From the NCBI RefSeq assembly GCF_003334385.1, contig NZ_QOWN01000180.1: a stretch of DNA of 443 bases. One strand, written 5' to 3'. This DNA comes from Escherichia coli (GTDB lineage: Bacteria > Pseudomonadota > Gammaproteobacteria > Enterobacterales > Enterobacteriaceae). Under the pieces are notes generated by a model that was given only the letters and a program-made list of their open reading frames with translations, was not told the origin of the DNA and searched no databases. Made by a program: the position numbers and the translations under genes. This document shows positions 1 to 443 of the stretch, piece by piece (the stretch's first letter is position 1; every line of letters starts with the position of its first letter).

Positions 1-245
1 ATGCCGCTACACTTTAGCCAGCCCATGTTTTCCACCGGGGAATGGGCTGACGGTATCCATAAAGTGACAAACCTTTTCAACAACTGCCACATTGAACGGC
101 ACGGGTGATTTCGGATTATTGTCTCATGAAGCGCCTGCCACAACCGTTCGACATGATTCACCCACGGCGAGTAAACTGGCTGATAAATCATCCTGAACTT
201 CGGATCAATATCCGGCACTTCATTCTCTGATATCTCCGACCCGCA
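1..245 (-). pseudogene. IS630/Tc1-mariner-like (DDE_3-type) transposase, 5'-truncated C-terminal remnant; open frame runs off the window at position 1
   Basis: Minus-strand translation from 245 down to 1 is open for about 81 codons: [81 protein letters not shown]. The motif YSP-x-V-N-H-V-E-x-x-W has the same spacing as the IS630-family YSPxLNPIExxW motif that carries the catalytic Glu, and is followed by the usual basic/hydrophobic tail. An in-frame TAA (plus-strand 246-248) lies only about 32 codons upstream of that Glu, so the rest of the catalytic domain is absent. First in-frame ATG is at 192-194 with no good Shine-Dalgarno. Family call is from memory of motifs, not a search. Confidence 0.5.
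19..49. repeat. Inverted repeat with 8-bp arms (cagcccat / atgggctg) and a 15-nt spacer
   Basis: Read directly: 19-26 cagcccat is the reverse complement of 42-49 atgggctg; spacer 27-41 is gttttccaccgggga. It lies inside the minus-strand transposase remnant. No U/T run follows on either strand, so it is not an intrinsic terminator. Confidence 0.25.
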
Positions 246-250
246 TTAAT

Positions 251-370
251 CTGAAAGAAATAGAAATTCACTGGTGTGAAGTGCTACGTCTGGCGACCTC
301 AATAAAACAGGGAACAGTGACAGCATCCCTGATGCTGAGAAAACTTGCCAATTACCCCAAACAAAAGTAA
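251..370 (+). pseudogene. Tn3-family transposase (TnpA) internal fragment, truncated at both ends
   Basis: Plus-strand frame (codons at 251, 254, ...) reads [39 protein letters not shown] then stop TAA at 368-370. This resembles the conserved C-terminal-region block of Tn3-family TnpA, recalled as roughly HWDD-LLRLA-S-K-GTV-AS-LL-KL-AYPRQNGLA. The frame is open back to 197 but has no start codon or ribosome-binding site, and it stops where intact TnpA would continue. No Tn3-type 38-bp terminal inverted repeat is present. Confidence 0.7.
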
Positions 371-391
371 GCGTACAGCCTGAACCGTCTG

Positions 392-404
392 GTCAGAATC
401 TGAC
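392..404. repeat. 13-bp perfect palindrome gtcaga-a-tctgac
   Basis: Read directly: 392-397 gtcaga is the reverse complement of 399-404 tctgac, around a single central A at 398. The loop is too short for a stable hairpin, so if functional it is more likely a dimeric protein-binding site. Function is unknown. Confidence 0.3.
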
Positions 405-443
405 GAATTAGACAAAGTGGTGTCCACCAAATAAGTAGTGGGA

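Follow-up and report, generated by a model that had tools for sequence, protein, structure and literature searches.

A perfect 13-bp palindrome in an Escherichia coli mobile-element mosaic lies in an ISEc8-type left end, and its symmetry is probably incidental

Introduction

The closest described system to the DNA analysed here was ISEc8, an IS66-family insertion sequence first described in Escherichia coli O157:H7. The name ISEc8 and the genes L0013-L0015 were used for this element in PMC2762410. According to PMC12898284 (2026), the transposition mechanisms of the IS66 family were still insufficiently characterized. Our own literature search for data on IS66 ends and promoters returned only descriptive mentions.

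Sister IS66-family elements of Enterobacterales were present in Klebsiella, Enterobacter, Salmonella, Pantoea, Serratia, Lelliottia and others, and their left ends were 78-93% identical. They shared the terminal pattern GTAAGCGT.CA.C, the motif CCGTCTGG at bases 19-26, the TGA at bases 35-37, a near-identical leader and the tnpA-tnpB-tnpC gene layout. More remote systems such as IS10, IS50, IS2 and IS911 had a terminal block common to both ends, an inner block specific to one end, and a left end located directly upstream of the first gene. IS2 and IS3 elements also encoded a small helix-turn-helix protein related to TnpA, and a fold-back of the IS10/IS50 kind was possible for the element described here. 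These likenesses were treated as analogies and not as membership in those groups.

Here we analysed a 443-nt stretch of E. coli DNA, which is referred to as the window throughout. It ended within an insertion sequence with the same left inverted repeat (IRL), palindrome and leader as ISEc8, and no difference was found within the visible part, the first 77 of 2,442 bases.

Results

The window was a mosaic of three mobile-element pieces, derived from an IS630-family element, a Tn3-family element and ISEc8. The first piece (window 3..203, minus strand) was a fragment of an IS630-family transposase gene covering its C-terminal part (NCBIfam NF033545, transpos_IS630, E = 9.7e-12, profile positions 249-290 of 299), and it was annotated as a partial transposase or an IS630 family transposase in the matching ETEC plasmids. 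It was followed by an internal fragment of a Tn3-family transposase gene (203..366, plus strand; NCBIfam NF033527, transpos_Tn3, E = 2.1e-15, profile positions 777-828 of 954) with a translation of 55 residues. The in-frame TAA at 368-370 that closed this reading frame was part of the insertion-sequence end GTAAGCG. The last piece (367..443, plus strand) was an ISEc8-type left end of the IS66 family, comprising IS bases 1-77 at 100% identity to ISEc8 copies. A longer palindrome with 7-bp arms (CAGCATC and GATGCTG) and the 3-nt loop CCT was also noticed at window 321-337, within the Tn3-family transposase fragment.

No record covered at least 80% of the window in the three collections that were searched. 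Plasmid pF8704-2_3 carried the same junction between the Tn3-family fragment and ISEc8, with 98.8% identity over window 201-443. In many ETEC plasmids, about 55 bp separated the IS630 fragment (window 1-203) from an ISEc8-type left end, and the 163-bp Tn3-family fragment was missing; one such locus was L002 4007-4328, which matched window 1-203 and 367-436. Thus, the arrangement in the window was a different mosaic of the same pieces.

The first-pass annotation had described the DNA beyond the Tn3-family fragment as an unassigned segment, and it could be assigned. Window 366-443, with the insertion-sequence part at 367-443, matched E. coli O157:H7 copies with 100% identity along all 78 nt. A survey of 5,426 complete E. 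coli genomes found the 78-nt segment in 3,482 of them, at 10,575 places in total and at up to 22 places in one genome. The identity was at least 99% in 3,689 of the 4,339 matching records. A full copy at L003 3502-5943 was 2,442 bp long and carried tnpA, tnpB and a CDS annotated as 'IS66-like element ISEc8 family transposase'. Window base 367 thus corresponded to IS base 1, and it was this insertion that interrupted the Tn3-family gene between positions 366 and 367.

The inverted repeats of the L003 copy were 22 nt long and imperfect, and both began with GTAAGCGTACAGC, that is, they were of the GTAAGCG type. The window contained only the IRL (GTAAGCGTACAGCCTGAACCGT, 367..388, plus strand), which was 82% complementary to the right inverted repeat (IRR, L003 5922-5943). 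Imperfect repeats of the same type were also found in four other full-length relatives, and in all five full-length elements the match between IRL and IRR ended at IS base 22. Full-length copies were flanked by 8-bp target duplications, namely AATCTTAA in L003, AAATGTGC in L008 and TCTATGCA in L019; the right end of the copy in the window lay outside of it. The genes also lay beyond the window, with the ATG of tnpA at IS base 93, a would-be window position 459 just past the window end. In L003 the gene trio matched the NCBIfam profiles of IS66 TnpA (E = 6e-28), IS66_TnpB (E = 3e-35) and transpos_IS66 (E = 1e-137). TnpA further matched Pfam HTH_Tnp_1 (E = 2.4e-12) and weakly resembled the IS2 repressor TnpA (E = 1e-6) and IS3 OrfA (E = 1.8e-4). 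The sequence identity and all family features that were examined (repeat type, 8-bp duplication, trio of genes) place window 367-443 at the left end of ISEc8, an already known and very common insertion sequence.

The palindrome itself was present as the first-pass annotation had described it. Window 392-404 (GTCAGAATCTGAC) was its own reverse complement, with the 6-bp arms GTCAGA and TCTGAC around one central A, and the symmetry did not extend further, as both position 391 and position 405 were g. It corresponded to IS bases 26-38; 3 nt separated it from the 22-bp IRL, and the tnpA start codon followed about 55 nt downstream. Its location right after the TnpA truncation point also held, since the Tn3-family TnpA fragment ended at 366 and the palindrome started 26 nt later. 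The 443-nt window was simulated 1,000 times with a first-order Markov model. Palindromes with arms of at least 6 bp and a 1-nt loop occurred in 10.9% of the simulated windows, those with a loop of 0-1 nt in 17% and those with a loop of 0-4 nt in 36.9%. Since about 11% of the simulated windows contained such a 6+1+6 arrangement, the palindrome was not beyond chance, in agreement with the low priority that it had been given. The 13-mer occurred 20 times in the 487 kb of retrieved loci, each time in an ISEc8-type left end, and the surrounding 78 nt recurred at about 10,500 places. The suggested recurrence at mobile-element boundaries was therefore borne out, and the refuting case named in the first-pass annotation, a motif unique in the genome and not conserved in related loci, did not apply. 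It recurred with the insertion sequence because it was part of a multicopy element, not because the palindrome was a site of its own.

Conservation of the symmetry was assessed on two sets of left ends. The first set consisted of BLAST hits of graded similarity (78-93% identity) in plasmids and E. coli. For the second one, a single genome of each species was scanned with a pattern whose fixed bases all fell within IS positions 1-25, so that bases 26-38 were unconditioned; this yielded 63 stretches with 36 distinct ends. Pair statistics were calculated on 24 distinct alignable left ends that were 93% identical overall.

The perfect 13-mer was found only in ISEc8-type ends, three of the 24 aligned ones, which also had the lineage signature GAATTAGAC just downstream. 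Most sister elements had GTCATAATCTGA(T/A) at bases 26-38, with GTCATAATCTGAT or GTCATAATCTGAA as the commonest form outside the ISEc8-type ends, and preserved four of the six arm pairs. The pair 30-34 was G-C in the three ISEc8-type ends only and unpaired in the other 21, and the pair 26-38 was G-C in four of the 24 ends and otherwise G-T, which is not a DNA pair, or unpaired. Compensatory changes were absent, as none of the palindrome pairs had changed on both sides among the 24 ends. The perfect symmetry came down to two bases, G30 and C38, whose combination was confined to the ISEc8 lineage, whereas the sister elements had T at base 30 and A or T at base 38. A single template switch on a quasi-palindrome was considered as the origin of the dyad and rejected by reasoning, because the two changes corrected opposite arms (30->34 and 38->26). 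The palindrome centre GAATC (window 396-400) was likewise found only in the ISEc8 lineage, and the relatives had TAATC. The pentamer fits GANTC, the methylation motif of the HinfI/CcrM type.

Six distant IS66 ends shared bases 1-25 and were unrelated at bases 26-38, where they formed between zero and three of the six pairs. The right end of the same element lacked the palindrome, with GACGGGGATGTGT at its bases 26-38 and ATTGAC at its bases 23-28. L019 (GTCATAATCTGAT) and L008 (GTGATTTTCTGAC), two sister elements of full length in which the dyad was imperfect, were each flanked by identical 8-bp duplications. Since these duplications were intact, both elements must have transposed without the dyad. 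Thus, the symmetry is lineage-specific and dispensable in the sister elements. These results spoke against the three roles proposed in the first-pass annotation. A pair of operator half-sites did not agree with a dyad that was kept neither in sister nor in distant ends and showed no compensatory change. A recombinase core site would not be missing from the right end, and the match between the inverted repeats already stopped at base 22. Finally, a restriction-like site was not supported, as the symmetry was absent in sister elements and the recurrence was explained by the multicopy insertion sequence. The palindrome should accordingly not be catalogued as an operator or a recombination site.

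When the left ends were compared base by base, it was an asymmetric sequence that was conserved and not the dyad. Bases 1-13 were conserved at both ends of the element and bases 14-18 varied. They were followed by an inner end block at IS bases 19-37 (window 385..403, plus strand; consensus CCGTCTGGTCAtAATCTGA), in which C19, C20, G21, T22, C23, T24, G25, T27, A29, T35, G36 and A37 were invariant in the 24 distinct ends. Bases 19-27 (CCGTCTGGT) and 35-37 (TGA) were invariant or nearly so, and bases 38-44 varied again. From base 23 onward the block was specific to the left end. The constraint on it was moderate and not strong, as judged from the alignment: the most divergent relative, L008 (78% identity), had three changes in the 19 block bases, which was little better than average.

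Several distant IS66-type ends were found nested in leaders of the ISEc8 group, at L032 from about 2653 onward, at L041 from about 14481 onward and at L042 from about 1007 onward; such nested ends read GTAAGCGTCGTCTCAGTACCGTCTGG... and GTAACCGGCTCATTTAAACCGTCTGG... The first eight bases of the block, CCGTCTGG, occupied the same position (19-26) in two of them, L032 and L041. These two ends read GTAAGCGTCGTCTCAGTACCGTCTGGCTCAGAAACC and GTAACCGGCTCATTTAAACCGTCTGGTCTGTTTC, respectively, and neither fitted the pattern used in our search. This suggests that CCGTCTGG is a family-wide inner inverted-repeat motif.

Downstream of the palindrome, the tnpA leader contained an imperfect inverted repeat (L003 3546-3590, IS bases 45-89) formed by GACAAAGTGGTGTCCACC and GTAGTGGGAACCAAAGTGTC and ending 4 nt before the tnpA ATG. 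The window held its 5' half (411..443, plus strand), with the left arm at 411-428, the loop at 429-437 and the right arm from 438 past the window end. The leader was nearly invariant in the 24 ends, and the overall covariation of the repeat was no different from that of shuffles. In L008 (S. proteamaculans), two changes strengthened the repeat (pair 56-78 as UA and pair 57-77 as CG), and in L027 (Intestinirhabdus) the leader had an 18-bp perfect stem with a folding energy of -32.1 kcal/mol (z = -8.7). In the leader of the distant element L017, a similar motif (GTGGACACC, CCCACT) was present in inverted order. We considered this leader repeat to be a more convincing dyad in the ISEc8 end than the palindrome.

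The leader repeat was also a place where IS66 left ends were interrupted. The breaks fell repeatedly in its loop (window about 432-438, IS bases about 66-72), as in L002, L009, L016, L032, L070 and L074. At least five different junction partners were seen at IS bases of about 66-72, including other IS66-type and IS3-family ends, and about 11 breaks were located between IS bases 45 and 125. It is because of the breaks in this loop that the matches of the ETEC plasmids to the window ended at 436. The loop of the leader repeat may thus be a hot spot of insertion.

Discussion

The palindrome is bases 26-38 of the left end of an ISEc8 copy whose insertion truncated a Tn3-family transposase gene, and the lack of conserved symmetry was shown by the comparison of the ends. 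On this basis we considered it likely that the symmetry is incidental and that the asymmetric end block is the part that matters. The left arm of the palindrome overlaps the inner inverted-repeat motif CCGTCTGG(TC), and the right arm falls in a stretch that is specific to the left end and moderately conserved among close relatives. Any function would be carried by the asymmetric CCGTCTGGTCAtAATCTGA and not by the dyad. The most likely role of bases 19-37 would be to form the inner portion, specific to the left end, of the end that the IS66 proteins recognise. Candidate binders would be the DDE transposase TnpC, possibly together with the helix-turn-helix protein TnpA, and the block may also overlap the tnpA promoter region. 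Both the binding and the promoter role may apply by analogy with other insertion sequences.

The promoter role can also be taken as an explanation in its own right. IS bases 28-33 could be the -10 element of a tnpA promoter with a transcription start near base 40, and the palindrome would then be a by-product. The proteins of the element would autoregulate tnpA by binding to the adjacent inverted repeat, which means that this possibility partly overlaps the explanation we preferred. Most relatives had CATAAT at bases 28-33, a match to TATAAT in five of six positions, and A29, the most important -10 position, was invariant in the 24 ends. The block was specific to the end that lies upstream of tnpA, and many insertion sequences, for example IS10, IS2 and IS911, carry their transposase promoter in the IRL. 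On the other hand, a consensus scan for sigma-70 promoters (at least 9 of 12 consensus bases, 16-18 bp spacing) gave no sites in ISEc8 (L003 3440-3700) or in an E. cloacae relative (L005 2540-2800), and no acceptable -35 element could be read 16-18 bp upstream of bases 28-33, where CGTACA matched in three of six positions. Moreover, an intact E. cloacae element had CATAAC, with the critical final T lost, and S. proteamaculans had GATTTT at the -10-like position. It was therefore unlikely that a -10 element accounted for the conserved block, even though this was the best of the alternatives. ISEc8 itself had CAGAAT at window 394-399; the G that perfects the palindrome weakened the match to the -10 consensus.

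Another possibility was that the conserved bases act in RNA. In transcripts reading through from outside the element, IS bases 20-36, with both palindrome arms, could pair with the first tnpA codons, thereby enclosing the start codon, and block translation; native transcripts would lack the 5' arm. Such inhibition of read-through transcripts by fold-back is of the IS10/IS50 type. IS bases 20-36 (window 386-402) were complementary to L003 3597-3622, which encodes tnpA codons 2-10, through the pairings CGUCUG/CAGGCG, GUCAUA/UGUGAC and UCUG/CAGA. This pairing was predicted by RNAalifold on the 24 ends. In the alignment, 96.1% of cells could pair compared to 20-53% with a slid partner, and one pair had changed on both sides, but the structure was derived from the same near-identical sequences, and therefore the slid control was biased. 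RNA of bases 1-125 folded better than shuffles (z = -2.07 in ISEc8, -3.35 in L004 and -3.03 in L008); removal of the first 39 nt abolished the signal in ISEc8 (z = 0.10) and weakened it in L004 (z = -1.60). The duplex energy compared with that of a shuffled 5' arm gave p = 0.019-0.076 within the close group. However, the covariation was weak, with 16 of 500 shuffles reaching the observed level, and the distant element L017 had no such complementarity (z = +0.58). The G30 of ISEc8 itself broke one of the fold-back pairs by a G-G mismatch, and the 3' partner was a coding sequence constrained by the protein. Taken together, the predicted fold-back was suggestive within the close group but an improbable explanation of the stretch, more so than a -10 element.

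The next explanation gave weight to the dyad itself, as an operator or a binding site for a dimeric protein, either a TnpA dimer or a host regulator, that was gained in ISEc8. Both ISEc8-specific bases, G30 and C38, improved the symmetry, TnpA was a helix-turn-helix protein related to regulators of the IS2/IS3 OrfA type, and the dyad was located between the inverted repeat and tnpA, where an operator could act. Nevertheless, the symmetry was kept in neither sister nor distant elements and changed there without compensation, the dyad was absent at the right end, and sister elements transposed without it. Furthermore, the arms were only 6 bp long, and such palindromes were expected by chance in 11-37% of windows. 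We considered an operator at this position very unlikely.

A more far-reaching version of this idea concerned the success of the element. The ISEc8 lineage was by far the most abundant one, which we counted against the explanation we preferred, and the fact that two separate substitutions both perfected the dyad in ISEc8 hinted mildly at selection for symmetry there. One could speculate that a dimeric protein, most plausibly TnpA, gained a new symmetric site through G30 and C38, that this changed the control of tnpA-tnpB-tnpC or the use of the left end, and that it aided the success of ISEc8; we gave this chain of events slightly less credence still than the operator itself. If it were true, the new site would be part of the reason why ISEc8, with up to 22 copies per genome, is more successful in E. 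coli than any other IS66 lineage.

Two other candidates for protein recognition were examined and rejected. For an IHF site (WATCAANNNNTTR), inspection by eye showed that AATCTGACGAATTAG fitted only with the wrong spacing and that the relatives had AATCTGAAGCATCCG without the TTR. Regulation by Dam methylation was discarded because no GATC was present in IS bases 1-45. An Rfam search gave one sub-threshold chance match (15.9 bits compared with a gathering score of 50, E = 0.55).

Finally, the view of the palindrome as a structural signal in DNA or RNA (a cruciform at the end, a small terminator or an attenuator) was largely refuted and hardly credible: a stem of 5 bp closed by a 3-nt loop is possible, but as single-stranded DNA the hairpin was weak (-3 kcal/mol, z = -1.55, with 18 of 200 shuffles folding at least as well), the relatives kept just four Watson-Crick pairs that were broken by a mismatch, no T-run followed the stem, a terminator scan found none on this strand, and folds of larger regions put the palindrome bases in other pairings.

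The explanation by an ISEc8 left end had a direct use for annotation. The tail of the window should be recorded as the ISEc8 left end, and the Tn3-family TnpA fragment as one that takes its stop codon from the terminus of the insertion sequence. For the IS66 family as a whole, whose ends and regulation are poorly characterised, the inner block (IS bases 19-37) and the leader repeat (IS bases 45-89) represent concrete targets.
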